Below, piece by piece: positions 2,508-58,931 of a stretch of DNA of 64,000 nt. Within the stretch, counting starts at the first letter, position 1. The number at the start of each line of letters is the position of its first letter. This DNA comes from a virus. Its lineage: Duplodnaviria > Heunggongvirae > Uroviricota > Caudoviricetes. The stretch covers positions 28,836 to 92,835 of the IMG/VR virus record IMGVR_UViG_651053022_000007; one strand, 5' to 3'. The notes under the pieces were generated by a model. It did no database searches and had not been told where the DNA came from. It worked only from the letters and a program-made list of their open reading frames with translations. Both the position numbers and the translations under genes were made by a program.

Positions 2508-2516
2508 GGAGAAAAA

Positions 2517-5545: not shown

Positions 5546-5547
5546 AA

Positions 5548-8919: not shown

Positions 8920-8991
8920 AACGAAACCCGTTTATTTGCAAACACCCTGCTTCAGGAAAAGTATACCGCGCAACAACACACCATTTACGGT

Positions 8992-11454
8992 TCAATTCCC
9001 TGTTAATTGCAAAACTTGCTCTTCCAGCTTTTTAACCCTGCGTCTCATCATCGCAGATTCCAGAATCAGAGCCTCTTCATAACGGATACCGTAACATTCA
9101 CCAGCCTCGACGGCTTCGCGTACCAGAACCTTTGTCTGTATAAGTGGGTAAACTCCTGCAGAATGCTCTTCTTCCGTCACATCCCTGTATTCTGCCGGGG
9201 TCTCATTCCACTTGTCATAACAGATAAATGCCAGTCGTGACACATCTATGCCTTCATTCTGAAATACACTGATAACATGCTGCGCAACTGCACCAAAGTG
9301 CCATCTTGCTCCGTCTTTACCTTTCACTTCGATCCTGTCAAGGTACTGGTATGAAACCCATTCCACTCTTTCCCATGCGTCCAGTATTTTCTCATCAATA
9401 ACCTCTGGAGCAGTCTTGAAACGCGCATCGGACAGCACCGTAAACGCTGACTGGGTAAATCCCCCCGACCATGCACGACCAGCCAACCCAAGAGAATAAG
9501 TATTCGTTGTCGATGGTGTCATGGCTGAATCAGAAAACTGTATATATTCTGAATTTCCAGTAGATATTCGAATATTTCCATTTATTAGCGACATAGTGCC
9601 TTTAGTATTATCACTATTGAATAATTTCAATTGCGAACTTATACCGCCTCCCACAGCCAGAGATACATCGCCTTCAGCAAGCATTCTGAATTTATCTGCA
9701 GAAACAAGCGTCTGGTTAGCAAGGTTAAAATATTTAACCCACCATTCAAAACGCCCTGACATAGTCCCAACGTACTGACCAAGCGCAGGGACGTGAACAA
9801 CATTGCTATTTGTAGTGCCGTCTATACTGGAAATACCAGTCACCGCTGATGCAGAACTCAGAATATTATTTCTGTCACCCGGATGTTTAATTTCAACAAA
9901 GTTCCTGATACACCCTTCCTCGAAGGTAACCACGCCGGAAGAACTATACATGGGGAATATTGACGCATAATTACTGCGTGCAGCATCTAAGAAACGAATG
10001 GTTGTAGATGTCTGCAGATCTCCTGATTCATTTTTCCCATCACACCCAGTCATTAGAATATTACTGGCAATATTATTATTTCCCTGAACGGTGACTCCGT
10101 GCGCCTGCTTTGCGTCCGATTCAGAGTAATCAACCAGCACATTCGAAATCAGGTTACCAGTCCCCTTGCCAACAACTACTGCGGCGTATTTTGGGTTGTT
10201 AGCCATTACACTGCTAATGATATTATTCGTTGGGGCAGTTTCCGTCTCAGTTCCATTGTAAACAACGTGCTGACACTCTTCACCAATAACATTGCTGACA
10301 ATGTTATATTTTGCTGCTGTTTTAAGTTCCACTGCACCAAACTGAGGATAATTTCTGGCTATCACACCATCAATTAGCGTATTTTGCGATGAATCAAAAA
10401 GCACACAACCTGCTTTTTTATTATTTGCGAACCCTAAATACTCTCCTCTTATATCTCTAACAATGTAACCTGACGGAATACCATTATTCGGATAAGCGAT
10501 CAAGCTAAATCCTGTTCCTCGCGTATTTGTAAATCTGATATTTTTAACCGATACATCATGGCCACCTGAAAATGACACCTGGTGTCCCTGCACACTATCA
10601 TCTGATTTATTTCCCATAATTGTTAGCGTACTAAGCATGCCACCATCGGGCATGTTAAAAACCAGATGATTACCATCTCTGTCATACTGTTTTATCGTTC
10701 CCCCACCTGTTCCGTACAAGCCACAACGTGAAAGAGAAACTAAAGATGTATTGAATACCCCTTCCGGAACAAAAACACTGCTAAACGAATGTAATGATTT
10801 TGTAAAAGCATCCTTGTTATCATTTAAGATTCCATTTTGAGCTCCAAAATCCTTAATGCTGACACCATCACGCATCTTATCCTGGAACGTTCTGTATACC
10901 GCTCCAGAACCATACTGAATAAACCAACCAAAACCACCAATAACTCCGGCGATTGCAGCATCGACATAATTACGCATTGAGCGATTATTTACAGCGTCCT
11001 GCTCAAGTGATGGATCGGCAAGGTTAGATATTCTGTTTTGCTTTGCATCGTAATATTTTGCAAGCAAAGATGGTTTCATCAATGCACGTCTGAACCACCC
11101 AAAACATCGCTGGATCAGCATCGTCAGGTAGTCAAATGCATCCTCATGAACTTCGGGGAAAAATTTTCCCTGATTGCGAAGATCAGTCTCCTGCACCACA
11201 TCAAGCACACGCTCTATCGTGATTCGCCAGCCAGCAGCAAGCGGCGACGGAAGAACCACTGCACCGCCACTATAAGTTCCCGCCCCTGTTACCGTATAAC
11301 CAGCATCCAGCACTAGTTTTGTAACGTTACCGTTAAGGTCAGACACCTGAACAACCAGGTCGGATTTTTTGAAAATACGGAAGGTATACGGAAATGATGT
11401 CGTAACGCCGTTACCTGTGTATTCGTTGTGGTCAACTTCGGTTGAGACCGTCAT
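8992..11454 (-). CDS. tailspike / tail fibre with C-terminal S74 intramolecular chaperone domain
   Basis: 820 aa; conserved N-terminal head-binding-like segment (NEYTGNGVTTSFPYTF), long beta-rich central part, C-terminal chaperone-of-endosialidase-like domain (DARFKT...GARWHFGAVAQ). Confidence 0.8.
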   Translation of the reverse strand: MTVSTEVDHNEYTGNGVTTSFPYTFRIFKKSDLVVQVSDLNGNVTKLVLDAGYTVTGAGTYSGGAVVLPSPLAAGWRITIERVLDVVQETDLRNQGKFFPEVHEDAFDYLTMLIQRCFGWFRRALMKPSLLAKYYDAKQNRISNLADPSLEQDAVNNRSMRNYVDAAIAGVIGGFGWFIQYGSGAVYRTFQDKMRDGVSIKDFGAQNGILNDNKDAFTKSLHSFSSVFVPEGVFNTSLVSLSRCGLYGTGGGTIKQYDRDGNHLVFNMPDGGMLSTLTIMGNKSDDSVQGHQVSFSGGHDVSVKNIRFTNTRGTGFSLIAYPNNGIPSGYIVRDIRGEYLGFANNKKAGCVLFDSSQNTLIDGVIARNYPQFGAVELKTAAKYNIVSNVIGEECQHVVYNGTETETAPTNNIISSVMANNPKYAAVVVGKGTGNLISNVLVDYSESDAKQAHGVTVQGNNNIASNILMTGCDGKNESGDLQTSTTIRFLDAARSNYASIFPMYSSSGVVTFEEGCIRNFVEIKHPGDRNNILSSASAVTGISSIDGTTNSNVVHVPALGQYVGTMSGRFEWWVKYFNLANQTLVSADKFRMLAEGDVSLAVGGGISSQLKLFNSDNTKGTMSLINGNIRISTGNSEYIQFSDSAMTPSTTNTYSLGLAGRAWSGGFTQSAFTVLSDARFKTAPEVIDEKILDAWERVEWVSYQYLDRIEVKGKDGARWHFGAVAQHVISVFQNEGIDVSRLAFICYDKWNETPAEYRDVTEEEHSAGVYPLIQTKVLVREAVEAGECYGIRYEEALILESAMMRRRVKKLEEQVLQLTGN

Positions 11455-11558
11455 GTTAAATCTCCAGATAGTCGCAGCACCCGTTGCGCCGCATATCTGG
11501 TTATTCTATTACCCAAAAAACCATATATGGATAGAAAGACTGTGAATATGAATAGATA

Positions 11559-11573
11559 TTACCTTTCAGGTAA
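11559..11573. promoter_or_regulatory. operator-like palindrome TTACC-N5-GGTAA
   Basis: TTACCTTTCAGGTAA read directly. Confidence 0.45.
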
Positions 11574-11610
11574 TTTGCAAAACGTGCTGGATAGCAAACA
11601 AATTATTTGC

Positions 11611-11630
11611 TACTGTATAAATATACAGTT
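11611..11630. promoter_or_regulatory. LexA (SOS) box
   Basis: TACTGTATAAATATACAGTT = CTGT-N8-ACAG with AT-rich spacer, about 20 nt upstream of the 11651 start. Confidence 0.6.
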
Positions 11631-11650
11631 ATTGCATGGAGAAGATTAAG

Positions 11651-11908
11651 ATGCAGCAGTATCACTATCCACTGGAAGAGGGATTTACCGAAAGGATTCA
11701 CACGCCGGGAGGCGTCAGGTCACTGGTGGAGGGATCGCACTTGATGAAATTACTCCGGGATCTCGATAAGGATGGATTTAATGTCGATGGCCCACTTGCC
11801 GAACTGACTGCACTGATTAACTACGTCACCAGCTCACAGATGTCTATGCAGGATCTGCAAACACATCTCGACTATTGTGCCGAACAATTACGAAAACAAA
11901 CCAGATAA
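11651..11908 (+). CDS. small protein homologous to the C-terminal domain of Ant; putative SOS-controlled antirepressor-like factor
   Basis: ORF 11636..11908, likely start at MQQYHY (GGAG 8 nt upstream); about 40% identical by eye to the C-terminal 65 aa of 12224..12919. Confidence 0.45.
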   Translation: MQQYHYPLEEGFTERIHTPGGVRSLVEGSHLMKLLRDLDKDGFNVDGPLAELTALINYVTSSQMSMQDLQTHLDYCAEQLRKQTR

Positions 11909-12223
11909 GGTTTGCAATCACCAAATGGAGTGCTTATATTTACCTTTGCGGTAAATTTACAACGCACTCCTCTTGTGCCATAGTAATCGAGCACTGGCAA
12001 AATCCAGTGCCGGGATTGGCGTCCCGGATTACTAAAAGGCGCATTCACCGCGCAAGCGGTTTTTTTATGCGTATAGCACGGCCACATTCGTATTATGGTG
12101 GGCTGTGTGGGGGCACCGAAAGGTGCGCCGGGTCCTTTTAGCCGGTTACGCCAACCCTGCACAGTTCACCACCAACCGATTGGCGTCGGTAGTGGTGATT
12201 AACCAGACTAAAAGGTAACCACT

Positions 12224-12919
12224 ATGACAGCTACAAAAAGCACGTCCATTTTTTCTTTCGAATCCCAAGCCGATATACGGGTAATCGTCATTAATGGTGA
12301 GCCATGGTTTATCGCTTCAGATGTTTGTCGGGCTATAGGCATAGCAAACCATCGAGATGCTGTTCGAAAACTTGATGATGATGAGAAGGGCGTCGCTTCA
12401 ACCGACACCCCTGGCGGTGAGCAAGAATCGATCATCATCTCCGAGTCAGGCCTCTACACACTGATCCTCCGCTGCCGCGACGCAGTGACACCAGGCACTA
12501 TCCCCTACCGCTTTCGCAAATGGGTTACAGGTGATGTTCTTCCTCAGATCCGTCGCACCGGAAGTTACATTAAAAACTCGCTCCCGCAGGAAGAACGCAT
12601 AAAGATGGTTGCCGACCAGGTAGCCAGCGCCACAGCATCAGCAGTGATGCAGGCAATGAAGGTAGAGAACAAAACCTACAGCGCCCCACTGAAGCCCGGC
12701 TACCGCAGCCTGATTCATTCGCCGTCTGGTGTTCTTGGCCTGACGGAGAACTCACTGCTGATGAATCTGCTGAACCAGTTACAGGACGACGGGCATGACG
12801 TATCGGGCGCGGCGGCGGAGCTGACCACCATGTTCTGCTACATCGTCGGTGTGAGCAAATGCCTGCGTGATATCCAGACGCACGCGGAGTACATCAGCGA
12901 CAAAGCAGGGTTCTTCTGA
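12224..12919 (+). CDS. ant: Bro-N domain antirepressor (Ant)
   Basis: 231 aa; N-terminal Bro-N-like region (IRVIVINGEPWFIASDVCRAIGI...SGLYTLIL). Confidence 0.75.
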   Translation: MTATKSTSIFSFESQADIRVIVINGEPWFIASDVCRAIGIANHRDAVRKLDDDEKGVASTDTPGGEQESIIISESGLYTLILRCRDAVTPGTIPYRFRKWVTGDVLPQIRRTGSYIKNSLPQEERIKMVADQVASATASAVMQAMKVENKTYSAPLKPGYRSLIHSPSGVLGLTENSLLMNLLNQLQDDGHDVSGAAAELTTMFCYIVGVSKCLRDIQTHAEYISDKAGFF

Positions 12920-12985
12920 CGGGCGGCGGCACAGGGATGTGCCTTTAAAATAATCATTGGCGATGTGATGTAGATTCGCGTAATA

Positions 12986-13000
12986 TTACCTTAAAGGTAA
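12986..13000. promoter_or_regulatory. operator-like palindrome TTACC-N5-GGTAA
   Basis: TTACCTTAAAGGTAA directly followed by AGGAGG RBS. Confidence 0.45.
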
Positions 13001-13011
13001 AGGAGGCGCGA

Positions 13012-13179
13012 TATGACAGCGTTGAAAAATCGTACTCAGCACAATGAACAAGCCAAGCAATGCTGGGATGTCATTGGAAAAGTTATGCTTGGTCGCGCAA
13101 GCAAAGAGCGCGACAAGGATATGGTTTACCAGACAGGAACATCTTTTAGCGACTTCAAGGCGGCATTTCGCTCCAAATA
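13012..13179 (+). CDS. small hypothetical protein (55 aa)
   Basis: ATG 5 nt after AGGAGG; MTALKNRTQHNEQAKQCWDVIGKV...; not in supplied track. Confidence 0.3.
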
Positions 13180-13200
13180 GAAGCACATCAGGAGTTTTCC

Positions 13201-13644
13201 TTGAAGTTTAACATTAGAATATCTAATAGTTTTCTACATGGGGAAAGCAACACCCCTTTCGCTGTAGACGGACCTTTCCTTACTGATGATGAAATAAAAA
13301 TCATACAAAGGTTTTTAGAGGATGTTGCCAATGGAAGGGCGCTTGTTGGAAAAAACAAGCCATCGTGGGTTGATGATAACCATGATAAAATTCCCGGCTC
13401 AGACAATTATGAGCAAGAGAATTATTGGCATTATCATTGTGGGCCAACATGGTATCCAAACACATTTAAGAATTATACCATTAACTTAAATTTCAACCCT
13501 GGCGGAATGCATTCTAATGAATGCATTCATTATGCAAAAAATGATAATGAAATTGTCATTGTTGGATTTTCAAGAGAACACATACCTTTCCTTTCATCAG
13601 ATGGAAACAACAATCCGCTTTTTAATGATGAAGAAGAAGAATAA
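13201..13644 (+). CDS. hypothetical AT-rich moron protein (147 aa, acidic C-terminal tail)
   Basis: TTG start 8 nt after CAGGAG; low-GC coding region; Cys/His-containing, ends NDEEEE; followed by terminator. Confidence 0.45.
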   Translation: MKFNIRISNSFLHGESNTPFAVDGPFLTDDEIKIIQRFLEDVANGRALVGKNKPSWVDDNHDKIPGSDNYEQENYWHYHCGPTWYPNTFKNYTINLNFNPGGMHSNECIHYAKNDNEIVIVGFSREHIPFLSSDGNNNPLFNDEEEE

Positions 13645-35751: not shown

Positions 35752-35884
35752 CGGTAGGCATGATAAGACGCGTCAGCGTCGCATCAGGCATCTGCGCACG
35801 GTGTCGGATGCGGCGCGAGCGCCTTATCCGACCTACGGTTCAGGCCTGTAGGCATGATAAGACGCGTCAGCGTCGCATCAGGCA
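35752..35884. repeat. two REP-like palindromic units
   Basis: GGCATGATAAGACGCGTCAGCGTCGCATCAGGCA occurs twice; resembles E. coli chromosomal REP elements. Confidence 0.55.
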
Positions 35885-37080
35885 ATTGATGTCTTAGGGC
35901 CGGAGAAACGCAGACGGCGTACCACACAGGAAAAGATCGCAATTGTTCAGCAGAGCTTTGAACCGGGGATGACGGTCTCCCTCGTTGCCCGGCAACATGG
36001 TGTAGCAGCCAGCCAGTTATTTCTCTGGCGTAAGCAATACCAGGAAGGAAGTCTTACTGCTGTCGCCGCCGGAGAACAGGTTGTTCCTGCCTCTGAACTT
36101 GCTGCCGCCATGAAGCAGATTAAAGAACTCCAGCGTCTGCTCGGCAAAAAAACGATGGAAAATGAACTCCTTAAAGAAGCCGTTGAATATGGGCGAGCAA
36201 AAAAGTGGATAGCGCACGCGCCCTTATTGCCCGGCCTGCTCGGCAAGAAAACGATGGAAAATGAACTCCTCAAAGAAGCCGTTGAATATGGACGGGCAAA
36301 AAAGTGGATAGCGCACGCGCCCTTATTGCCCGGGGATGGGGAGTAAGCTTAGTCAGCCGTTGTCTCCGGGTGTCGCGTGCGCAGTTGCACGTCATTCTCA
36401 GACGAACCGATGACTGGATGGATGGCCGCCGCAGTCGTCACACTGATGATACGGATGTGCTTCTCCGTATACACCATGTTATCGGAGAGCTGCCCACGTA
36501 TGGTTATCGTCGGGTATGGGCGCTGCTTCGCAGACAGGCAGAACTTGATGGTATGCCTGCGATCAATGCCAAACGTGCCGATGACTGGAAGGACGGCCGC
36601 CGCAGCCGTCACACGGATGATACGGATGTGCTTCGCCGTATACACCATGTTATCGGAGAGCTACCCACATATGGTTATCGTCGGGTATGGGCGCTGCTTC
36701 GCAGACAAACAGAACTTGATGGTATGCCTGCGATCAATGCCAAACGTGTTTACCGGATCATGCGCCAGAATGCGCTGTTGCTTGAGCGAAAACCTGCTGT
36801 ACCGCCATCGAAACGGGCACATACCGGCAGAGTGGCTGTGAAAGAAAGTAATCAGCGATGGTGCTCTGACGGGTTTGAGTTCCGCTGTGATAACGGAGAA
36901 AAACTGCGGGTCACGTTCGCGCTGGACTGCTGTGACCGTGAGGCACTGCACTGGGCGGTCACAACGGGTGGCTTCGACAGTGAAACAGTACAGGACGTCA
37001 TGCTGGGAGCAGTGGAACGCCGCTTTGGCAGCGAGCTTCCGGCGTCTCCAGTGGAGTGGCTGACGGATAATGGTTCATGC
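35885..37080 (+). mobile_element. IS2 remnant (5'-truncated orfA, 3'-truncated orfB, internal tandem duplications)
   Basis: orfA from codon 2 ([55 protein letters not shown]) and orfB to ..WLTDNGSC; 98-bp duplication at 36137-36333 and 170-bp duplication at 36407-36747. Confidence 0.8.
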
Positions 37081-37697: not shown

Positions 37698-37716
37698 CGG
37701 TTGGATCACCTCCTTA
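37698..37716 (+). rRNA. 16S rRNA 3'-terminal 19-nt fragment (start of an rrn spacer fragment)
   Basis: CGGTTGGATCACCTCCTTA, followed by spacer with tRNA-Ile and tRNA-Ala. Confidence 0.6.
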
Positions 37717-37784
37717 CCTTAAAGAAGCGTACTTTGAAGTGCTCACACAGATTGTCTGATGAAAATGAGCAGTAAAACCTCTAC

Positions 37785-37861
<77 letters not shown>

Positions 37862-37903
37862 AATTTGCACCGCAAATTTGAAGAGGTTTTAACTACATGT
37901 TAT

Positions 37904-37979
37904 GGGGCTATAGCTCAGCTGGGAGAGCGCCTGCTTTGCACGCAGGAGGTCTGCGGTTCGATCCCGCATAGCTCCACCA
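37904..37979 (+). tRNA. tRNA-Ala (anticodon TGC)
   Basis: GGGGCTATAGCTCAGCTGGGAGAGCGCCTGCTTTGCACGCAGGAGGTCTGCGGTTCGATCCCGCATAGCTCCACCA. Confidence 0.85.
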
Positions 37980-39634: not shown

Positions 39635-39790
39635 TTACTCCTCAGGTTCGTAAGCTGTGAAGACAGCGACCTCCGTCTGGCCGGTTCGGATTCGTACCTC
39701 GCAGAGGTCTTTCCTCGTTACCAGTGCCGTCACTATGACGGTTAAACAGATGACGATCAGGGCGATTAACATCGCCTTTTGCTGCTTCAT
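39635..39790 (-). CDS. hokD: Hok/Gef-family type I toxin
   Basis: 51 aa MKQQKAMLIALIVICLTVIVTALVTRKDLCEVRIRTGQTEVAVFTAYEPEE; not in supplied track. Confidence 0.75.
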   Translation of the reverse strand: MKQQKAMLIALIVICLTVIVTALVTRKDLCEVRIRTGQTEVAVFTAYEPEE

Positions 39791-39807
39791 AGCCTGCTTC
39801 TCCTTGA

Positions 39808-40127
39808 CCTTTCGGTCCGTAAGAGGCTAATCTCTATGTGTCGCATAGATATGGCCTCAGATTAATGTTAAGCGTCTTGCAGGACGCGTAATGTTAACTG
39901 GGGCTTTTCTCTATCTGCCTTTTGGTGTTCATGCCTGAGACAGATAGCCTCAAGCACCCGCACCCTTGCCTTTCGGCACGTAAGAGGCTAACCTACATTT
40001 GTGAGACATAGATTGGGCCTCAGATTAATGTTAAGCGTCTTGCAGGACGCGAAATGTTAACTGGGGCTTTTCTCTATCTGCCTTTCAGTGTTCATGCCTG
40101 AGACAGATAGCCTCAAGCACCCGCAGC
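39808..40127. repeat. tandem direct repeat, 2 x about 160 bp, immediately upstream of hok
   Basis: units 39808-39968 and 39969-40127, a few percent diverged, each with internal palindromes. Confidence 0.6.
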
Positions 40128-45573: not shown

Positions 45574-45649
45574 TGGCGTCCCCTAGGGGATTCGAACCCC
45601 TGTTACCGCCGTGAAAGGGCGGTGTCCTGGGCCTCTAGACGAAGGGGAC
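45574..45649 (-). tRNA. tRNA-Glu (anticodon TTC)
   Basis: reverse complement reads GTCCCCTTCGTCTAGAGGCCCAGGACACCGCCCTTTCACGGCGGTAACAGGGGTTCGAATCCCCTAGGGGACGCCA. Confidence 0.85.
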
Positions 45650-45734
45650 GTATCAGTCTGCTTCGCAAGACGCCTTGCTTTTCACTTTCTATCAGACAAT
45701 CTGTGTGAGCACTGCAAAGTACGCTTCTTTAAGG

Positions 45735-46781
<1,047 letters not shown>

Positions 46782-47911: not shown

Positions 47912-49105
47912 GTGGCTTTTGATGGTTCCTCCGATATCACATTAAAAGCAAGTCATGTTGGTGCGTTTGCCTTAGGGAAAACAGGAAGCACCGTTGCGAA
48001 TGATAAAGCAGTTGGATGGAACTGGAGTAGCGGAGCCTATAACGCAAATATTGGTGGTGCATCAACGTTAATTATTCATTTTTATATGGGAGAAGGAAGT
48101 TGTCCTGCAGCTCAGTTTCGGATTAATTATAAAAATGGCGGTATTTTTTATCGTTCAGCCCGTGATGGTTATGGTTTTGAAGCCGACTGGTCCGAATTTT
48201 ACACCACCACCAGAAAGCCTTCAGCAGGAGATGTTGGTGCACTGCCGTTATCTGGTGGTCAACTGAATGGTGCACTGGGTATCGGAACATCCAGTGCTCT
48301 TGGCGGTAATTCGATTGTATTGGGTGATAATGACACGGGCTTTAAACAAAATGGCGATGGTAATCTGGATGTTTATGCTAATTACGTCCATGTTATGCGC
48401 TTTGTTCCCGGAAGCATTCAAAGTAATAAGACCATAAATATTACGGGGCGTGTTAATCCCTCGGATTACGGTAACTTTGATTCCCGTTATGTGAAGGAAC
48501 TGTCCGGCAATGCCGCTACTGCAACAAAGCTGAAAACAGCACGAAAAATTGCTGGAGTTGGTTTTGATGGTTCTAGCGATATTTCAATTAGTGCCAAAAA
48601 TGTCAATGCATTTGCACTCCGACAAACAGGTAATACTGTTAATGGTGATACATCCGTTGGATGGAATTGGGATAGTGGTGCATATAACGCCATGATTGGT
48701 GGTGCATCTGCATTAATTCTTCACTTTAATATAAATGCTGGTAGCTGTCCTGCCGTACAATTCCGTGTGAATTATAAAAATGGTGGCATTTCCTACAGGT
48801 CGGCTCGTGATGGTTATGGGTTTGAATTAGGTTGGTCAGATTTCTATACCACGACACGAAAACCTTCAGCGGGAGATGTTGGTGCATATACGCGGACAGA
48901 ATGTAACTCAAGGTTTATTACAGGTATTCGCCTTGGCGGTCTGTCATCTGTTCAGACATGGAATGGTCCCGGCTGGTCTGACAGGTCAGGTTATGTCGTT
49001 ACGGGTTCAGTTAACGGAAACCGTGATGAATTAATTGATACAACACAGGCAAGGCCAATTCAGTATTGCATTAATGGGACGTGGTATAACGCGGGGAGTA
49101 TTTAA
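47912..49105 (+). CDS. side tail fibre C-terminal (variable, receptor-binding) region
   Basis: 397 aa with internal duplicated domain; directly followed by tfa. Confidence 0.55.
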   Translation: MAFDGSSDITLKASHVGAFALGKTGSTVANDKAVGWNWSSGAYNANIGGASTLIIHFYMGEGSCPAAQFRINYKNGGIFYRSARDGYGFEADWSEFYTTTRKPSAGDVGALPLSGGQLNGALGIGTSSALGGNSIVLGDNDTGFKQNGDGNLDVYANYVHVMRFVPGSIQSNKTINITGRVNPSDYGNFDSRYVKELSGNAATATKLKTARKIAGVGFDGSSDISISAKNVNAFALRQTGNTVNGDTSVGWNWDSGAYNAMIGGASALILHFNINAGSCPAVQFRVNYKNGGISYRSARDGYGFELGWSDFYTTTRKPSAGDVGAYTRTECNSRFITGIRLGGLSSVQTWNGPGWSDRSGYVVTGSVNGNRDELIDTTQARPIQYCINGTWYNAGSI

Positions 49106-49107
49106 CG

Positions 49108-49641
49108 ATGATGCACTTAAAAAACATTACTGCTGGCAACCCTAAAACAAAAGAGCAATACCAGCTAACAAAGCAATTTAACATCAAATGGCTTTATTCA
49201 GCTGATGGAAAAAACTGGTATGAGGAACAAAAGAATTTCCAGCCAGACACTTTGAAAATGGTCTATGACCATAACGGCGTTATTATTTGTATTGAAAAGG
49301 ATGTTTCAGCAATTAATCCGGAAGGCGCAAGCGTCGTTGAATTACCTGATATTACAGCAAATCGCCGGGCTGATATTTCGGGGAAATGGATGTTCAAAGA
49401 TGGCGTAGTGGTAAAGCGAACTTATACCGAGGAAGAGCAGAGGCAACAAGCGGAAAATGAAAAGCAGAGCCTGTTGCAACTTGTCAGGGATAAAACTCAG
49501 CTATGGGACTCACAGCTACGGCTGGGCATCATTTCCGACGAGAATAAACAAAAATTAACCGAGTGGATGCTCTATGCGCAGAAAGTCGAATCCACAGACA
49601 CCTCCAGCCTGCCAGTAACATTTCCCGAACAACCTGAATGA
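49108..49641 (+). CDS. tfa: tail fibre assembly protein Tfa
   Basis: 177 aa; [21 protein letters not shown]...[15 protein letters not shown]. Confidence 0.8.
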   Translation: MMHLKNITAGNPKTKEQYQLTKQFNIKWLYSADGKNWYEEQKNFQPDTLKMVYDHNGVIICIEKDVSAINPEGASVVELPDITANRRADISGKWMFKDGVVVKRTYTEEEQRQQAENEKQSLLQLVRDKTQLWDSQLRLGIISDENKQKLTEWMLYAQKVESTDTSSLPVTFPEQPE

Positions 49642-49669
49642 GACAAGGCCCGATAACGGGCCTTAATTT

Positions 49670-50040
49670 TTATTCAGGCTTTTGTGGCCATTCAGGATTT
49701 GCCGTATCCACACGGTTGACCAGAACACTGTAGCGTTCCCATGCTTCCAGTCGTGTGCGTTCCTCGTCTGTTGCCATATTCAGCCTGACAGCGCGTTCCA
49801 GCGGCTGGATGACTGATTCAGCTTCGGAAAGCAATGCGGCCTTTTGTGATTCGGCCTGTTGTTGCTGTTCGTCAGCCGTATAAATCCGTTTAACCACAGC
49901 TCCGTCCTTAAACATCCACTTACCGGAATCATCGGTCCGACGATTGGCCGTTATATCGGGAACCTCGACGACGCTAAAACCTTCGGGATTAAGCGTGGAG
50001 GCATCTCTGGTGATGGCGACAATAATATTATTTTCATCGT
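49670..50040 (-). pseudogene. tail fibre assembly protein fragment (N-terminally truncated), inverted
   Basis: ...[25 protein letters not shown]...EWPQKPE on minus strand. Confidence 0.55.
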
Positions 50041-50051
50041 AAACAATCTTT

Positions 50052-50354
50052 ATGGTTTATTACTTTGTGACCTATGATAAAAATATAGAAGAACTAGCGA
50101 GAATTGCTGATGGTGGAGCATATCCTGCTATAAAACCTGATGATATTTGTACATTACCTCTAATTATTCCATCAATAAATATAATTGAGAAATTTGATGA
50201 ATTAACAAGCAATTTCAGAGAGATGATGAATAACTCATTAATTCAAAACGAATATCTCACCAACCTCCGAGGCACCTTGCTCCCGAAACTCATCTCCGGC
50301 GAGCTATCCCTGGAAGATCTTCCGGATCTCACCACCGATACAGAAGCCGCATAA
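50052..50354 (+). pseudogene. type I R-M specificity subunit (HsdS) C-terminal fragment
   Basis: ends LRGTLLPKLISGEL, the conserved HsdS repeat-end motif; no N-terminal target-recognition domain. Confidence 0.55.
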
Positions 50355-50436
50355 CGCATTTTGCCCCTGTAAAATCAGGGGCTTTCTGGTAAGGTTTTCT
50401 ACTGATACGGGAATGCTTACCAGAAATTAGCCAGGG

Positions 50437-53400
50437 TTGGAGCGCGATATGAGTCTCTCTTTCAGTGAAGCAAAATTAGAACAAGCGATCATTGAACTGT
50501 TACAGGATCAGGGATATCAACACCTGATCGGCGATAATGTCCCACGTTCGAGCCTCGATCAGGTCATTATCGAAGACGATCTCCGTCATTATTTAGCGGC
50601 ACGCTACCAGCCTGATGGCATTACTGAAGAAGAGATTCAGCGACTGATCAAACAGTTCACCACGCTTCCGGCCTCCGATCTTTATGAAAGCAACAAAACA
50701 TTTTGTCGCTGGCTGGCAAATGGTTTTCTGTTCAAACGCGACGATCGGCAACAAAAAGATCTCTATATTGAATTGCTCGACACCCGGCATCTACCTGCCG
50801 CACTGCGCCAGATATTTGACGCCGAAGATGTCCCGTTGCAACAGGCGGCGGAACTCCCGCCTTCCTATATGAATCCGCCGCTTAACCGGATTAAGATTGT
50901 TAACCAGCTTAAAATCTCCGGCAAAGATAATCAGACTCGTATTCCTGACGGCATTCTCTATATCAATGGTCTGCCATTGGTCGTCTTTGAATTTAAAAGT
51001 GCGGTGCGCGAGCAGGAAGCCAGTATTGGCGATGCCTGGAAGCAGCTCTGTAAACGCTATCGCCGGGATATTCCGCAACTGTTTATCTACAACGCGCTCT
51101 GCATTATTAGCGATGGCGTAAATAACCGGATGGGCAACCTGTTTGCGCCCTATGAATACTTTTACTCATGGCGCAAAGTCACCGGTAATGAAAACCGTGA
51201 ACAGGACGGAATTCCATCATTGCACTCAATGATTCAGGGGCTGTTTCATCCGGTACGTCTGCTGGATGTGATTAAAAACTTTATCTGCTTCCCGGATAAA
51301 GCCAAGCACGAAGTAAAAATTTGCTGCCGATATCCGCAGTACTATGCCGCCCGCAAACTCTATTACAGCATCAAGCAAGCGCGTAAACCTTTCGGTAGCG
51401 GTAAAGGCGGCACTTACTTTGGCGCAACGGGCTGTGGTAAAAGTTACACCATGCAATTTTTAACGCGTCTTTTGATGAAGAGCGTGGAGTTTGCCAGCCC
51501 GACCATTGTTTTGATCACCGACCGCACCGATCTGGACGATCAGCTTTCTGCGCAAATGTGCAACGCCAAAAATTACATTGGCGACGACACCATCGTTCCC
51601 GTTACCAGCCGTGAAGATTTGCGTAATCAACTGGCAGGACGCAATAGTGGCGGAGTCTTTCTGACAACGATCCATAAATTCACCGAAGACACCGAACTCC
51701 TTTCTGAACGCAACAATATCATTTGCATCTCGGACGAAGCACATCGTAGCCAGGTTAACCTCGACCAGAAAGTCATCGTTGATAAAGAAAGCGGAAAAGT
51801 GCGCAAAACGTATGGCTTTGCGAAATACCTGCACGATTCACTGCCAAACGCCACCTATGTTGGCTTTACCGGCACACCGATTGACGCGACGCTCGATGTC
51901 TTCGGTGAGGTGATCGACAGTTACACCATGACCGAATCCGTTCAGGATGAAATCACTGTACGCATCGTGTACGAAGGCCGTGCGGCTAAAGTGATCCTGG
52001 ACTCCAGCAAACTGGAAGAAGTCGAAAAGTATTACGAAGAGTGCGCAAACGCAGGCACCAATGAGTGGCAAATCGACGAAAGCAAAAAAGCCACCGCCAC
52101 CATGAATGCGGTTCTGGGTGATGAAGATCGGTTAAAAGCCCTCGCAGAAGATTTTGCCAAACATTATGAAAAACGCGTAGCCGAAGGTTCCACCGTAAAA
52201 GGCAAAGCCATGTTTGTTTGTGCCAGCCGTGAAATTGCCTGGGATTTCTACCGTCAGCTTAAAGCTATTCGCCCTGCCTGGTTTGAAGTGAAGCAAGCAC
52301 CCGATGGCGTCGTCCTGACGGAACAGGAGCAGAAAGAGTTACCGCCTTCAGAAATGGTGAAGATGGTCATGACGCGCGGTAAAGATGACGACGAGGCGCT
52401 TTATGATTTACTGGGCACAAAAGAATATCGCAAAGAGCTGGATAAGCAGTTCAAAAACGCTAAATCGAATTTCAAAATTGCCATTGTTGTTGATATGTGG
52501 CTGACCGGTTTCGACGTCCCGGAACTGGATACCATCTATATTGATAAACCCTTACAAAAACATAATCTTATCCAGACTATTTCTCGCGTTAACCGTAAAC
52601 TGGAAGGCAAAAGTAAAGGGTTAGTGGTGGACTACATCGGCATTAAAAGTCAGATGAACCAGGCACTGGCAATGTATTCCCGCATTGATGCCACCAACTT
52701 TGAAGATATTCAGCAATCGGTAATAGAAGTTAAAAACCATCTCGATTTGTTGGGGCAAGTCTTTTACGAATTTGACAGTCGGGATTATTTTAGTGGTGAG
52801 CCACAAGCGCAATTATCCTGCCTCAACCGCGCGGCGGAATTTGTTCTGCGTACCCAGAAAGTTGAACGTCGTTTTATGGGACTGGTTAAACGCATGAAAG
52901 CCGCCTACGACGTCTGCTGCGGCAGCGAAGCATTATCACAGACAGAACGTGACTATATTCACTATTATCTTGCTGTTCGTTCAATTGTTTTCAAACTGAC
53001 GAAAGGTGACGCACCGGATGTTACCCAGATGAATGCACGCGTTCGTGAAATGATTGCAGAAGCGTTAAAAGCTGATGGCGTAGAAGAAATTTATTTTCTT
53101 GGCGATAAAAAAGCGGAATCCATCGATATTTTTGACGAAGATTATCTGGCGCGAATTAACAAGATCAAACTTCCGGCAACGAAGATCCAGTTATTACAAA
53201 AATTACTGGAAAAAGCGATCAGCGACTTCAAGAAAGTGAACCAGTTGCAAGGGATTAACTTCACCCGCCGCTTCCAGGCGATTATAGATCGTTATAATGA
53301 GCGGCGAGAAGATGATGTACTCAACGGTGAAGAATTCGATACATTCAGTCAGGAAATGACCGATATTATCTATGATATTAAAACCGAAATGGGCACCTGG

Positions 53401-53598
53401 GCCGATTTAGGCATTGATATTGAAGAAAAAGCCTTTTTCGACATTCTTGCTCATATGCGCGATAAATATCAGTTCACCTATGACGATGAAAAAATGCTGT
53501 CACTGGCAAAAGAGATGAAAAGCGTGGTTGACAACACATCTAAATATCCTGACTGGAGTAAACGCGATGATATTAAAGCGAAACTGAAATTTCCCGAT
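50437..53598 (+). CDS. hsdR: type I restriction enzyme R subunit (HsdR), 3' end replaced by tRNA gene
   Basis: nuclease motif [10 protein letters not shown], helicase motif I GATGCGKS, motif II DEAHRSQ; ORF 50437..53715 reads through tRNA-Arg. Confidence 0.7.
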
Positions 53599-53675
53599 GC
53601 ATCCGTAGCTCAGCTGGATAGAGTACTCGGCTACGAACCGAGCGGTCGGAGGTTCGAATCCTCCCGGATGCACCA
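53599..53675 (+). tRNA. tRNA-Arg (anticodon ACG)
   Basis: GCATCCGTAGCTCAGCTGGATAGAGTACTCGGCTACGAACCGAGCGGTCGGAGGTTCGAATCCTCCCGGATGCACCA. Confidence 0.85.
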
Positions 53676-53711
53676 TCTCTTACTTGATATGGCTTTAGTG
53701 GCGGTATCAAG

Positions 53712-53951
53712 GTGAGTCAGTATCCGGAGTTGATAGCGCAGTTTTCAAGCGGTAATCAAACACGTATAAAACAAGGATTAATCGCAAAAGCACCACTTGA
53801 AGGTTGGCATTATGGCACTAAAGAAATCGTTAAAAAATTCCACATGTATCATCGTGTTGCGATTGAATATAGTGGCGGAATTTACGATATTGATAATTTA
53901 AGGAGGGCACACCTCATTTGCATGATGAAATTTATTACAGGAGATAGTTAA
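53712..53951 (+). pseudogene. HNH-type DNase bacteriocin/toxin, C-terminal domain fragment
   Basis: 79 aa; FHMYHRVAIEYSGGIYDIDNLRRAH resembles colicin/pyocin DNase core; no N-terminal delivery domain. Confidence 0.45.
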
Positions 53952-54200
53952 ATGTATAATTTTAAAGATAAAATAGAAGATTACACAGAGCGGGAATTCA
54001 TTGAGTTGCTTGGCGAGTTTACAAATCCAACCGGGGATAACGCTCAATTAAAAGGGGAAGAGCTTGACAAATATTGGGATGATCTAGAAGAACATCTTAC
54101 CAGAATTACACAACATCCGTTGATGAGCGATCTTATCTACTATCCTGCAAAGAAGGGAGATGATGAACCTGAAAACATCCTGAAAATTCAGGGAATTTAG
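53952..54200 (+). CDS. colicin/pyocin DNase-type immunity protein (Im family)
   Basis: 82 aa; DYTEREFIELL...HPLMSDLIYYP..GDDEPENI matches Im9-like pattern. Confidence 0.7.
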   Translation: MYNFKDKIEDYTEREFIELLGEFTNPTGDNAQLKGEELDKYWDDLEEHLTRITQHPLMSDLIYYPAKKGDDEPENILKIQGI

Positions 54201-54319
54201 TCTCCAGGATTCCCGGGGCGGTTCACAGTAATCATGCCGGGTCTGGCTGGCTAACACCCCATTATAAGGGGTACGAATAAAGTAACGGGGATGTTACTCA
54301 CCGATCTCCTTCACGGTAA

Positions 54320-54982: not shown

Positions 54983-55276
54983 CGAAAACCTGCTGTACCG
55001 CCATCGAAACGGGCACATACAGGCAGAGTGGCCGTGAAAGAAAGCAATCAGCGATGGTGCTCTGACGGGTTCGAGTTCTGCTGTGATAACGGAGAGAGAC
55101 TGCGTGTCACGTTCGCGCTGGACTGCTGTGATCGTGAGGCACTGCACTGGGCGGTGACTACCGGCGGCTTCAACAGTGAAACAGTACAGGACGTCATGCT
55201 GGGAGCGGTGGAACGCCGCTTCGGCAACGATCTTCCATCGTCTCCAGTGGAGTGGCTGACGGATAATGGTTCATGC
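54983..55276 (+). mobile_element. IS2 orfB internal fragment
   Basis: ...[45 protein letters not shown]...WLTDNGSC, ending at the same codon as the copy at 37080. Confidence 0.7.
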
Positions 55277-55669
55277 ACCATAAAGATTGTTTACGATGAA
55301 AATAATATTATTGTTGCCATAACCAAAGATGCCTCCACACTTAACCCTGAAGGTTATAGCGTCGTTGAGATTCCTGATATTACCGCCAACCGGCGTGCTG
55401 ACGACTCAGGTAAATGGATGTTTAAAGATGGCGCAGTCATTAAACGTGTATATACCGAAGAAGAGTTGCGCCTACAGACGGAAAACCAGAAAAAAATATT
55501 ATTACAGCAGGCCAGAGAAAAAACGCAGTTCTGGCAAACACAGCTTACTTTGGGGATTATCACTGATTCAGACAGACAGCAACTGATGAACTGGATGCGA
55601 TACGTGCAACAGGTTGAGACAACTGATACCTCGGTTCTTCCTGTAACATTCCCGGAACCACCAGAATAA
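55277..55669 (+). pseudogene. tail fibre assembly protein fragment fused behind IS2 fragment
   Basis: ...[28 protein letters not shown]...[11 protein letters not shown]. Confidence 0.55.
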
Positions 55670-55699
55670 GAAAAGGCCCGTACGGGCCTTAATTTGTTG

Positions 55700-56227
55700 T
55701 TATTCTGGTTTCTGTGGCCATTCAGGCTTTGCAGTATCCACACGGCTGACCATAACGCTGTAGCGTTCCCATGATTCCAGTCGTGTGCGTTCCTCATCAG
55801 TTGCCATATTCAGTCTGACAGCACGTTCCAGCGGTTGAATCACAGACTCCGCTTCGGAAAGCAAAGCGGCTTTTTGTAACTCTGCCTGCTGTTGCAGTTC
55901 CTGTTTTGTATATTCCCGCTTTACTACTTTACCATCCAGAAACTTCCAGTTTCCCGAGATATCGGCGCGACGGTTGGCTGTTATATTCGGTAACTCAACA
56001 ACACTTAACCCGTCAGGGTTAAGTGTTGATACGTCTTTCTCAATACAACGAATAATCCCCTTCTGGTCATAAGCTATTTTTAAAGTATCATCCTGAAAGT
56101 TTTTTAATTCGTCATACCAGTTTTTACCGTCTTCTGTATATAGCCAGATAACGCCAGCTTTTTTCGTAAGCTGATACTGCTCAATGGTTTTGGGGTTTCC
56201 GGCGGTAATATTTTTCAGATGTTGCAT
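55700..56227 (-). CDS. tfa: tail fibre assembly protein Tfa (alternative copy)
   Basis: 175 aa; [21 protein letters not shown]... Confidence 0.8.
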
Positions 56228-56242
56228 ATATTCTCCTGATGG

Positions 56243-57313
56243 CTATGCCTGTTCAACGTTATACCAGTTACCAGAAATGTATTTTTGTAGTGGTCGTGAC
56301 ACCATCCAGTCATCTCCATCAACCTCACCAATAATTTGCAATCCTGTTGTCACATGACCATTACCTGGTTCGCAAAGTCCTCCGCGATATAATGTGTCAG
56401 AACGTCTGCCTCCCAGACGCACATTTCTGATAAAAGAACTATTCAGGTAATCATTTAAGTTTGACCCCCAGCACCCACCAAATATATTTCCATCGGTGTT
56501 ATAACGGACGCCACCCGCAATAAGAGCACCCGGTGAAATAAAGGATTTATCGTTCGGGTTAAACTGCCATAAAGCATCATTACCGCCATCGCCACGCATA
56601 TGAATACATGGAACCGGAAATCCATACTGTTCTGTCAGTAAATACCCAAAGCTGACCGCGCCGGGATAGCCCTGTCCATTGCGAATGGACAAGCCCTTAA
56701 CTATCGGCACGTAAAGACCACCAGGAGTGGGATTCCAGGCAAACTGCGTCTGAACAAAAGGCGCGGTGGCATTATTCAACTGGTCTGCAAATGCGCCACT
56801 TCCATCAGGAATTATTCCCTGATGAATATATGCAACCCGCTTATAAAAATCAGCAGATGCGGGTTGAAGCCCAAATGCCAGTTGTCCATTTGAATAGAAT
56901 AAAAGGACACCGTCGCCGCCCTGTTTAATACCAGTGTCGTTATCTCCGAGAGTAATGGAATTACCGCCCAGTGCGTTATCTGTACCAAGCGCCAGCCCAC
57001 CATCAATTTTGGCCCCGTGGCTGACAGATATAGCACCTGTTCTCAGATTTATAGCGAATGGCCTTAATGGGCCGATATCACCGTTTTCGCCTTGTCCTTC
57101 AGCCGTCGGAATGAAATGAAGAAAATCTTCTGAACGACGGAAAATAAGACCGAAGGCATCATTGAAAATTCGCAGCGCATTCACCGTGCCAATTTTCAGT
57201 TCTCCGGTCATTTTATCGCCGGAACGCTGAACGGCGTTACCAGCCTTGTTTACCGTTTCCTGTAAACCGAGGTTCTGCAACGAAACGCTCTTGTTTGTGC
57301 AGGATATGAACAA
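56243..57313 (-). CDS. alternative tail fibre C-terminal (variable) segment
   Basis: 356 aa; start overlaps gix-like site (..NLGLQETVNKAGNAVQRSGDKMTGELK); followed by tfa. Confidence 0.55.
   Translation of the reverse strand: MFISCTNKSVSLQNLGLQETVNKAGNAVQRSGDKMTGELKIGTVNALRIFNDAFGLIFRRSEDFLHFIPTAEGQGENGDIGPLRPFAINLRTGAISVSHGAKIDGGLALGTDNALGGNSITLGDNDTGIKQGGDGVLLFYSNGQLAFGLQPASADFYKRVAYIHQGIIPDGSGAFADQLNNATAPFVQTQFAWNPTPGGLYVPIVKGLSIRNGQGYPGAVSFGYLLTEQYGFPVPCIHMRGDGGNDALWQFNPNDKSFISPGALIAGGVRYNTDGNIFGGCWGSNLNDYLNSSFIRNVRLGGRRSDTLYRGGLCEPGNGHVTTGLQIIGEVDGDDWMVSRPLQKYISGNWYNVEQA
57257..57274. promoter_or_regulatory. partial gix-like site (about 18 of 26 positions) abutting invertase-derived sequence
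   Basis: TTCCTGTAAACCGAGGTT then sequence continues as invertase codons. Confidence 0.35.
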
Positions 57314-57393
57314 ATATTTGAAGATAAATTAAGCGGAACAAGGACAGGCCGACCTGGATTAAAACGTGCTTTAAAGCGCCTTCAAAAAGGTGA
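57268..57393 (+). pseudogene. DNA invertase internal fragment (codons about 16-48)
   Basis: EVLQRNALVCAGYEQIFEDKLSGTRTGRPGLKRALKRLQKGDALVV then stop. Confidence 0.55.
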
Positions 57394-57668
57394 CGCACTG
57401 GTTGTCTGAAAACTGGACTGACTGGTTCACTGTATGCGGCATCTTGTCGTGCTGGTGGTGGAAGCCTAGAAAAAGTATCGGGTGTTACTGAACCGTGTTG
57501 ATACATCAACTGCACCTGATATTGAGTGGCCTACGAACCCTGTCAGGGAGTAATCATTGGGATTATGCCGCAGCACGTCTTAAGCAAGAACGTGCTGCGG
57601 TTGGATGCTATTTTTTCCCTGAAGCGGAAAACATTACTAGTATATTTACACTGACTCACACAGGCATC

Positions 57669-57854: not shown

Positions 57855-58134
57855 GGAGTTTACTCACATCTGACAAAATCAATATAAACAGCCCCTCCGG
57901 AGAGGGGCTGGAGAGTGGCGCTATGTGCCATTGCATGGTGCCGGGTGCCTCCCGGTGAATTCAGTACCAGCACCTGAATCCGCGATTATCCCATATACCT
58001 ACTCGCTGATTGCCCCTCCGCACAGGGGGATTCACCATGCCAGTTTCTTTTAACAAACTCCCCGCAAACCAGACAACAATCAACCGCCTGAATTGTGAAG
58101 TATTTAAAAATTTCTCCCGCTAACTGATACCCGG

Positions 58135-58568: not shown

Positions 58569-58681
58569 TACTTAACAGAACTTTTATTTTTGACAAACAT
58601 AAAATATTTTCAACAATATCCTGAGCCAGGTATATTTCAGTATAAGGCTCTGCCGGAAGGAATCTGGAAGAATGAATATAG

Positions 58682-58755
58682 CGCGCTGTACTGGATTCGA
58701 ACCAGTGACCGATTGCTTAGAAGGCAATTGCTCTGTCCGGCTGAGCTAACAACGC
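58682..58755 (-). tRNA. tRNA-Arg (anticodon TCT), no encoded CCA
   Basis: reverse complement GCGTTGTTAGCTCAGCCGGACAGAGCAATTGCCTTCTAAGCAATCGGTCACTGGTTCGAATCCAGTACAGCGCG folds as cloverleaf. Confidence 0.7.
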
Positions 58756-58855
58756 TGAATACCGATAATGGACCGCCATCGGGGACCCGCCCCCGCACCA
58801 ACAACCCTGTTATCGTGTCGTCTGCTCTTCCTGATAAGCTAATGGCGGTTTGTGA

Positions 58856-58931
58856 TGGTGGCCCTTGCTGGATTTGAACCAGCGACCTGGCGATTATGAG
58901 TCGCTCGCTCTCACCACTGAGCTAAAGGGCC
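58856..58931 (-). tRNA. tRNA with CAT anticodon (Ile2/lysidine-type or Met)
   Basis: reverse complement GGCCCTTTAGCTCAGTGGTGAGAGCGAGCGACTCATAATCGCCAGGTCGCTGGTTCAAATCCAGCAAGGGCCACCA. Confidence 0.8.

Follow-up and report, generated by a model that had tools for sequence, protein, structure and literature searches.

UPEC and other B2 strains of Escherichia coli possess an Hcp-ET3-4 array of the UTI89_C0121 type (PMC6099711 and PMC12466380), and the orphan immunity array between aroP and pdhR has already been described (PMC6730261). In this native array, an Hcp protein fused to a Pyocin_S domain and a colicin-type HNH DNase (Hcp, Pyocin_S and Col-Pyo_DNase in Pfam) is followed by a cognate immunity gene and then by 2-3 pairs, each composed of a DNase stub and an immunity gene. 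Such orphan pairs were found after the Hcp-ET3-4 effector and its immunity gene in strains 536 and JJ1887 and in six further assemblies, and their number varies with the strain (two in 536, three in JJ1887). The primary description of the Hcp-ET proteins is reportedly that of Ma et al. in 2017 (Virulence 8:1189). The type I restriction operon hsdM-hsdS-hsdR is found between yjiA/brnTA and symE, with hsdM (539 aa, N6_Mtase and HsdM_N) directly upstream of hsdS. tRNA-Arg(ACG) genes form a tandem array, an argQZYV-type cluster, downstream of csrA and tRNA-Ser.

We analysed a 64,000-nt stretch of DNA, hereafter the window, in which positions 50052-54200 had been predicted to form an orphan type I restriction subunit and an orphan toxin-immunity pair joined by a tRNA. 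The elements named in this original prediction are present, and the domain calls (HsdS C-terminus, HsdR, tRNA-Arg(ACG), HNH/colicin-DNase C-terminal fragment and Im-family immunity protein) proved right by Pfam, Rfam and ARAGORN; the elements do not form one locus, for they lie on blocks that map to separate chromosomal places (Table 1). Each of the three blocks is ~100% identical to a different place in ST131/B2 chromosomes of E. coli, with 99.8-100% identity to the respective loci. In JJ1887, the hsd DNA lies at ~5.02 Mb, the aroP-pdhR array at ~0.13 Mb, and the tail-fibre blocks at ~0.96 and 1.49 Mb. The stretch 50052-54200 is very probably made up of three unrelated, known pieces of E. coli DNA that abut one another without constituting a single genetic unit. 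Every component belongs to an already-known gene set of B2/ST131 E. coli.

Table 1. Blocks of the window around positions 50052-54200 and the features they carry
Feature	Position	Strand	Content
Left neighbour block	48496..50055	+	P2-like prophage tail-fibre C-terminus, tail-fibre assembly gene, part of an inverted assembly gene cut at 50055
hsd block	50056..53589	+	hsdS 3' end, intergenic stretch, hsdR codons 1-1047 of 1087
HsdS C-terminal ORF	50052-50354		ORF opening with the ATG at 50052
hsdS 3' end	50056-50354		native part of the HsdS ORF
hsdR codons 1-1047	50449-53589		native part of the HsdR ORF
tRNA block	53590..53709	+	common core of one tandem tRNA-Arg(ACG) array unit
tRNA-Arg(ACG)	53599-53675		tRNA gene
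Orphan toxin/immunity block	53710..54187	+	decayed DNase stub and first 79 of 96 immunity codons
DNase stub	53712-53951		colicin-type DNase fragment, 79 aa
Im-family ORF	53952-54200		truncated immunity gene
Right neighbour block	54188..54290	+	103-bp multi-copy prophage sequence

The blocks on either side are prophage DNA. The left one showed 100% identity to positions 8390-9950 of JJ1887 record L006 and matched gp37_C and Caudo_TAP in Pfam; the right one showed 100% identity to 2-50 places per genome in ST131, Nissle and other strains, where it is annotated as Rz spanin or as a hypothetical protein.

The hsd block is 100% identical to positions 6001-9534 of Nissle 1917 record L001 and to many ST131 chromosomes. 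Protein comparison and Pfam confirmed the predicted C-terminal fragment of HsdS and the near-full-length HsdR at their coordinates. The last 98 residues encoded by the HsdS ORF are identical to residues 337-434 of the 434-residue native protein, which is all that the window holds of an HsdS with two target-recognition domains; the ATG of this ORF is supplied by the left neighbour block and is unrelated to the hsd block. No Pfam match to Methylase_S was found on the fragment, whereas native HsdS matched it. The HsdR ORF is identical to residues 1-1047 of native WP_000058884.1 and then runs into tRNA sequence, so that 41 residues encoded by tRNA and spacer DNA stand in place of the final 40 of 1087. 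HSDR_N, SWI2_SNF2, T1R_D3-like and T1RH-like_C were all detected in Pfam, the coverage of the last falling from profile positions 5-328 in the native protein to 5-296 in the window (of 329).

As predicted, the window lacks hsdM: blastn and tblastn revealed no DNA or protein similarity to it anywhere in the window. The genes are not orphans, however, for the genomes with identical DNA hold a complete hsdM-hsdS-hsdR operon. hsdM, the 5' part of hsdS and the 3' part of hsdR were cut off at the block edges and are deleted in no genome examined. Likewise, the claimed replacement of the hsdR 3' end by tRNA-Arg(ACG) was seen in the window only and in none of 5,426 complete E. coli genomes, and a separate search found the hsdR 3' end running into symE as one stretch in 963 genomes.

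The identity of the tRNA was confirmed by ARAGORN and Rfam (67.1 bits), and 77 of its 77 nt are identical to all four tRNA-Arg copies in the K-12-like cluster L003. Its flanks, TTTCCCGAT and TCTCTTACTTG...GGTATCAA, match spacers of the native array. The cluster in L003 has 198-nt spacers carrying a remnant of the tRNA 3' end, which had prompted the idea of a "shortcut" taken inside the block by an assembler, in which a shared 20-mer would have linked the tRNA 3' end with the tail of the spacer. This idea was rejected: the short-spacer form is natural, being present in 44 metagenome contigs and 16 species genomes, where tandem copies at a distance of ~141 bp are frequent. The tRNA fragment is the core common to the units of the tandem tRNA-Arg(ACG) repeat, in collapsed form. 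The "linker" role of the tRNA most likely reflects assembly fragments that were concatenated or misjoined.

Downstream of the tRNA, the predicted C-terminal fragment of an HNH DNase was verified by Pfam (PF21431, E=1.8e-8, profile positions 54-112 of 124). It falls short of a full DNase domain with an intact H-N-H motif: in the alignment with the full effector, QIHH has become HMYH, and the terminal 'IVTPRLHDEIHY' is replaced with the unrelated 'RAHLICMMKFITGDS'. The following ORF is indeed of the Im family (PF01320, E=1.1e-18, profile positions 1-67 of 82, compared with E=6.4e-28 and positions 1-82 for the native 96-aa protein), and it shows the family motif DLIYYP as SDLIYYP at residues 59-65, in the conserved helix III region. 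The gene was predicted to be intact and is not. Its 79 native residues are followed by a foreign QGI-stop supplied by the right neighbour block, the native C-terminus VKEWRRSQGLPLFKDSK is lost, and a complete four-helix domain including helix IV is missing. For similarity to the Im fold family, sequence matches to solved structures of Im proteins and colicin DNases (PDB) were decisive.

The orphan block is 100% identical to positions 6001-6478 of E. coli 536 record L002 and shows 1-2 mismatches to both the orphan-1 and the orphan-3 copy of JJ1887. Protection against a related bacteriocin or CDI/Rhs toxin had been proposed; the toxin is neither a colicin nor a CDI or Rhs toxin, being carried by a T6SS Hcp protein encoded in the native aroP-pdhR array. 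The Hcp-ET3-4 effector locus itself, i.e. the Hcp-Pyocin_S-DNase fusion with its immunity gene, is absent from the window and present in L002, L004 and L069-L074. The notion of an orphan immunity gene kept beside a truncated toxin holds for the native locus, in which orphan toxin-tip/immunity modules were found; the window carries a cut piece of one module, in which the immunity gene itself is truncated. In the native array, the stubs are probably non-functional relics of earlier toxin tips that were displaced. They start at ~residue 516 of the 593 effector residues, and their C-terminus is divergent, with loss of the last His residues of the HNH motif. The immunity genes kept at full length would protect against the Hcp-ET3-4 variants that neighbouring strains carry.

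The four junctions (50055|50056, 53589|53590, 53709|53710 and 54187|54188) are all blunt, with 0-2 bp in common between the sequences that meet, and these sequences are megabases apart in every complete genome examined. No IS ends, att-like repeats or integrase were found at the junctions. Employing junction-spanning queries against 5,426 complete E. coli genomes, we found no genome with a single place covering at least 80% of a query. In metagenome contigs, a 31-mer across J2, the sole junction scanned there, gave 0 matches. A catalogue of 153 billion gene positions contained none of the chimeric HsdR, immunity and HsdS ORF products; the one ORF that lies wholly within a block was recorded in ~11,000 collection blocks, and the context of this ORF was aroP-HcpET-imm-orphans-pdhR in all six cases shown.

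Three of the six edges of the blocks coincide exactly with points at which repeat copies diverge. Both edges of the tRNA block lie exactly where the tandem units diverge, and the right edge of the orphan block lies one base before the first difference between orphan-1 and orphan-3 beyond the block. For both hsd-block edges and for the edge on the left of the orphan block, no coinciding repeat or allele boundary was found. The hsd edges are not those of within-genome repeats: the search for internal repeats gave nothing significant, with one weak 20-nt repeat at most, and in the ST131 records listed the 3' end of hsdR has a single copy. Assemblies of mixed strains would also break where alleles diverge; sliding identity against two other hsd alleles showed no such boundary at the hsd edges. 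The left edge is inside the variable TRD2 of hsdS, which ends at ~6207 of L001 and not at 6001; the right edge (9534 of L001) is in a uniformly conserved stretch, and identity is unchanged there. Nor is the left edge of the orphan block a copy-divergence point, for the JJ1887 orphan copies are identical over 123 nt upstream of the block. These three edges must have arisen otherwise, perhaps through drop-outs of coverage where the DNA is AT-rich.

Because the junctions are blunt and absent elsewhere and three of the six edges coincide with repeat boundaries, we regard the joining as artificial: the juxtaposition almost certainly arose from sequence assembly or concatenation and not from a biological process. 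Most likely, small contigs or graph nodes from a fragmented, short-read-type assembly would have been concatenated or misjoined, which would leave three chromosome fragments standing end to end without spacers. The joining agent would be an assembler, a scaffolder or record concatenation, or else deliberate splicing. By their identities, the fragments point to a phylogroup-B2, ST131-like E. coli chromosome as the source-like genome. In 1,266 collection blocks, the longest stub-carrying contig was <2 kb; this duplicated module is therefore often left as a tiny contig of its own.

An artificial adjacency could also have come from a source other than draft contigs, such as concatenation of segments from a pangenome or variation graph, or deliberate splicing. 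Blunt junctions without the k-mer overlaps expected of de Bruijn contigs, edges in unique sequence, and blocks that are not ordered by length would all fit this origin. Random splicing, however, would not bring three of six edges exactly onto repeat-divergence points, and it would not give both rrn-spacer fragments of the window the same start base; simple graph bubbles are opposed by the hsd edges, which lie off the allele-divergence boundaries tested with the two other hsd alleles. We consider such a source improbable.

A real rearrangement, in which illegitimate recombination joined hsdR at codon 1047 with a tRNA-Arg unit, followed by an orphan immunity module, is less probable still. Its outcome, equally improbable, would be an orphan HsdR that lacks hsdM and is re-tailed at its C-terminus, together with a truncated Hcp-ET3-4 immunity gene, in a hyper-rearranged ST131-like segment. 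The window contains no N spacers or linkers at its junctions, and the hsd-block edges lie away from detectable repeats, as illegitimate recombination might give. But at least 12 independent blunt events within ~10 kb would be needed, in segments that are still 100% identical to standard ST131 DNA, and several of the breaks would have to hit repeat-divergence points exactly. The absence of the junctions from the complete genomes, of J2 from metagenomes and of the three chimeric products from the catalogue also speaks against this rearrangement, which in addition would leave rrn spacers without rRNA genes.

tRNA genes are common integration sites of islands, and the toxin/immunity module lies 3' of the tRNA, yet the idea that a genomic island at tRNA-Arg(ACG) imported the pair, with the tRNA as a true attachment site linking two defence/competition modules, can practically be dismissed: no integrase ORF beside the tRNA and no direct repeat of its 3' end were found, the 34 nt that follow are ordinary array spacer cut where the units diverge, the toxin/immunity DNA shares 100% identity with the aroP-pdhR array, to which all native contexts examined belong, and the module is itself cut at both ends.

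Assembly or concatenation of fragments also accords with the wider window. The region 35.7-57.7 kb is mostly multi-copy DNA (IS1, IS2/IS3, prophage tail-fibre and early genes, REP elements, tRNA and rrn spacers), and unique DNA in the window occurs in long blocks, e.g. prophage blocks of 22 kb and 6 kb. The two rrn-spacer fragments begin at one and the same base, 19 nt ahead of the 3' end of 16S, and no 16S or 23S is attached to either. From 35.7 kb onward, the window looks like a patchwork of the same type, made of IS, prophage and rrn-spacer fragments. From ~35.7 kb on, and partly before 7 kb, its DNA should be read as a string of fragments without linkage, and findings here that rest on gene neighbourhood, truncation or fusion ORFs are suspect. 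The rve::tail-fibre-assembly fusion ORF at 55028-55669 is an example of such an ORF.

The architecture described as "joined by a tRNA" apparently results from fragments set side by side artificially. The arrangement of restriction subunit, tRNA and toxin/immunity pair is no real biological feature, and as a biological finding the locus has no import: the orphan HsdR, the tRNA linker and the adjoining pair are by-products of juxtaposition. Function, if any, belongs to the native loci of the fragments. The one piece of real biology touched here, the Hcp-ET3-4 orphan stub/immunity array, is already in the literature.

In its overall make-up, this part of the window resembles the collapsed-repeat and edge contigs of short-read bacterial assemblies. 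It shares with them short blocks rich in IS, prophage, tRNA-array and rrn-spacer DNA, several edges at repeat divergence points, and unique DNA kept in long blocks; it differs in having no N spacers or record breaks and in that three of its six edges lie in unique sequence. Compared to the hsdM-hsdS-hsdR operon of the 'immigration control' region (yjiA-symE) in ST131 and Nissle 1917, the hsd block matches completely over the hsdS 3' end and hsdR codons 1-1047 and has Pfam matches to all HsdR domains, that to T1RH-like_C being shortened. hsdM is missing, as are codons 1-336 of hsdS and the final 40 of hsdR. The toxin/immunity block likewise corresponds without mismatch to one orphan module of strain 536, taken from an array in which a native effector is followed by repeated Im-family immunity genes, whereas only 478 bp of it are in the window: effector, cognate immunity gene and the remaining orphan pairs are missing, and the module's own immunity gene has lost its last 17 codons. 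Relative to colicin DNases, the stub has neither the N-terminal half of the DNase domain nor the His residues that end the HNH motif. The native pair, in contrast, resembles the colicin E2/E7/E9 and pyocin S2/AP41 pairs: the C-terminal domain of the Hcp-ET3-4 effector matches the DNases of colicins E9 and E7 (E ~1e-32, PDB), and the 96-aa immunity protein matches, nearly over its full length, the AP41 immunity protein, Im7, Im8, Im9 and Im2 (E=2e-19 to 1e-13, PDB). Unlike colicins and pyocins, the native toxin has no colicin translocation/receptor module and is delivered by fusion to the type VI Hcp tube protein.

All elements of the original prediction, which had described an HsdS fragment, HsdR, a tRNA-Arg(ACG) and a toxin fragment with an intact immunity gene as one locus at 50052-54200, were reproduced by ORF listing, a tRNA scan and Pfam. 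The parts are present, although without any apparent linkage between them, and the immunity gene lacks its 3' end. Of the colicin/pyocin DNase domain, the 79-aa ORF matches the C-terminal half alone in Pfam. Nothing resembling hsdM, whether as DNA or as protein, was detectable across the whole 64-kb window.

Table. Positions of coding and RNA features in the window
Feature	Position	Strand	Evidence
HsdS-labelled ORF, 100 aa	50052-50354		ORF listing
HsdR ORF, 1092 aa	50437-53715		Pfam HSDR_N, SWI2/SNF2, T1R_D3-like, T1RH-like_C
tRNA-Arg(ACG)	53599-53675		tRNA scan
DNase fragment ORF, 79 aa	53712-53951		PF21431, positions 54-112 of 124
Immunity-family ORF, 82 aa	53952-54200		PF01320 (colicin/pyocin immunity), E=1.1e-18, profile positions 1-67 of 82
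sok antitoxin RNA (hok/sok-type), two adjacent full-length matches	39788-40122	-	107 and 101 bits
Gammaproteobacterial sRNA STnc100, full-length match	57880-58069	-	132 bits
tRNA-Arg(TCT) and tRNA-Met, after STnc100	58681-58931		tRNA scan
rrn 16S-23S spacer fragments, one with tRNA-Ile and tRNA-Ala, one with tRNA-Glu	37703-37979; 45574-45766	+; -	

Compared with native chromosomes, 50052-54200 consists of three unrelated blocks. In megablast searches of 5,426 complete E. coli genomes, 50056-53589 (the hsd block) showed 100% identity to the chromosomes of ST131 and Nissle 1917, and 53710-54187 (the orphan block) showed 100% identity to E. coli 536 at ~125.5 kb. The orphan block differs from JJ1887 at ~133 kb by 1-2 mismatches, and its chromosomal origin is quite distinct from that of the hsd block. 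The 120 nt between the two (the tRNA block) derive from the tandem tRNA-Arg cluster that follows csrA and tRNA-Ser. When the window was compared directly with the native DNA, the switch points fell at 50055|50056, 53589|53590, 53709|53710 and 54187|54188, with 0-2 bases in common at each; none of the four switches has an IS end, an att-like repeat or a linker, and the window contains no Ns. For junction-spanning queries, none of the 5,426 genomes had a single place covering ≥80% of the query.

The adjacency of the three blocks is most probably an artefact. A 31-mer over the hsdR/tRNA junction had no match in metagenome contigs, and the products of the three chimeric ORFs were not in a catalogue of 153 billion gene positions; as a control, the one ORF lying entirely within a block was recorded in ~11,000 collection blocks. 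As a real linked feature, the locus did not stand, with junctions found nowhere else searched and the same patchwork extending well beyond 50052-54200. Three of the six block edges, including both edges of the tRNA block, are repeat-divergence points. The third lies at the right-hand end of the orphan block: orphan 1 and orphan 3 of JJ1887 (pairs of a DNase stub and an immunity gene) first differ, beyond the block, at exactly the next base. The stub was confined to contigs of <2 kb in 1,266 collection blocks; therefore, the module is commonly a tiny contig in real assemblies. No repeat or allele boundary was detected at either end of the hsd block or at the left-hand end of the orphan block; these edges may plausibly stem from loss of coverage in AT-rich DNA. 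The joining agent would have been an assembler, a scaffolder or simple record concatenation.

The natural tRNA-Arg(ACG) array unit is a 77-nt tRNA plus a spacer, which in the short form reads TCTCTTACTTGATA..GGTATCAA, a variable middle and TTTCCCGAT. The tRNA block in the window is TTTCCCGAT, the tRNA and TCTCTT...GGTATCAA, exactly the portion common to successive array units, with the variable middle left out on both sides. It has the appearance of a tandem repeat collapsed into an assembly node. An internal mis-join within the tRNA block was ruled out by natural short-spacer arrays. Among the native loci compared, these arrays show two spacer forms (L003 749-1495 versus L053, L060, L023 and L024). 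The 198-nt spacers of strain S10 include 19-20 nt left over from the 3' end of the tRNA, AATCCTCCCGGATGCACCA, and then the tail that other strains have in their short spacers of 62-64 nt, which suggests that the long form was created by insertion or duplication.

In Nissle, the hsd block lies inside a complete operon of hsdM (539 aa), hsdS (434 aa) and hsdR (1087 aa), with symE at one end and yjiA/brnTA/a restriction endonuclease gene at the opposite end. The window retains HsdS residues 337-434 and HsdR residues 1-1047; in place of its final 40 residues, HsdR ends in 41 that are read from tRNA and spacer DNA, and the start ATG of the "HsdS" ORF is part of the neighbouring tail-fibre block. 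The 3' end of hsdR is single-copy, and 963 genomes contain one stretch from there into symE. Because the native operon is complete and continuous into symE, the "orphan" status proposed for hsdS and hsdR is a product of the block cut site, not of the genome; hsdM, absent from the window, is present in the native Nissle operon.

Unique DNA in the window forms long blocks, 6995-12954 and 13643-35755, with 99.7% and 99.98% identity, respectively, to one prophage of E. coli strain 1446; 1459-6994 and 12955-13642 had no match to this prophage locus. The prophage encodes portal, capsid, a T7 gp14-like core protein, an SLT transglycosylase and a tail-fibre protein; its blocks carry tRNA-Arg(TCT) at 30982, and 1-1458 matches another part of it. 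REP/BIME-type repeats at 35757-35833 and ~35840-35890 (Rfam naRNA4/CssrE, 70 bits) directly follow the long block end at 35755, which fits a contig ending at a dispersed repeat. At 35.6-47.5 kb, pieces of IS2/IS3, IS1 and lambdoid genes form a patchwork. Both rrn spacer fragments start at the identical base, 19 nt upstream of the 3' end of 16S, with unrelated DNA upstream of each, and no attached 16S, 23S or 5S was detectable. At 47.3-57.7 kb, at least 12 blocks of 100-3,500 bp come from scattered JJ1887 loci, including tail fibre, lom, IS1 and a multi-copy prophage fragment near Rz. A 213-aa ORF at 55028-55669 (+) combines, by Pfam, an IS3-family integrase-core (rve) fragment with the C-terminal region of a tail-fibre assembly protein; a blunt junction in the block map, 55275|55276, lies inside it, and it is a further fusion ORF from fragment juxtaposition. 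An invertible tail-fibre segment remnant (tail-fibre assembly gene, tail-fibre C-terminal gene and truncated recombinase) occupies 55276-57639, with 100% identity to JJ1887 (L005 8001-10474), but 109 bp (L005 10000-10108) are skipped at window 57274.

The components of the "locus" are already known genes, and the "locus" itself is not a real feature. The native site of the orphan block in 536, JJ1887 and six other assemblies is an array flanked by aroP and pdhR. The first gene of this array encodes a protein of 593 aa whose domains are T6SS_HCP, Pyocin_S and Col-Pyo_DNase and whose C-terminal end matches the DNases of colicins E9 and E7 (E about 1e-32). It is followed by a 94-aa immunity gene and then two or three pairs of a DNase stub and a 96-aa immunity gene. 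The 593-aa effector is Hcp-ET3-4, reportedly described by Ma et al. 2017. A paper cited alongside Ma et al. 2017 reports the Hcp-ET3-4 cluster in phylogroup B2 and F isolates only. The pair number differs among strains (JJ1887 L004 14775-18938 compared with L002, from 536, and L069-L074): two in 536, L069 and L071, three in JJ1887, L070, L073 and L074. Orphan 3 of JJ1887 duplicates orphan 1 almost exactly, with 3 SNPs over 478 bp, and L071 and L072 have a truncated or split effector gene.

Aligned to the effector, the DNase stub begins at about residue 516; HMYH replaces QIHH, and its C-terminus is unrelated and without the final His residues, features by which the stub would be a non-functional relic. 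Along its length, the immunity protein of the native array has matches to Im7, Im8, Im9, Im2 and the immunity protein of pyocin AP41 (E=2e-19 to 1e-13). The window copy, intact according to the original prediction, is cut after codon 79 of 96, loses helix IV and ends in a foreign QGI-stop. The idea of orphan immunity does not apply to the window locus; it holds solely for the native, already described Hcp-ET3-4 array.
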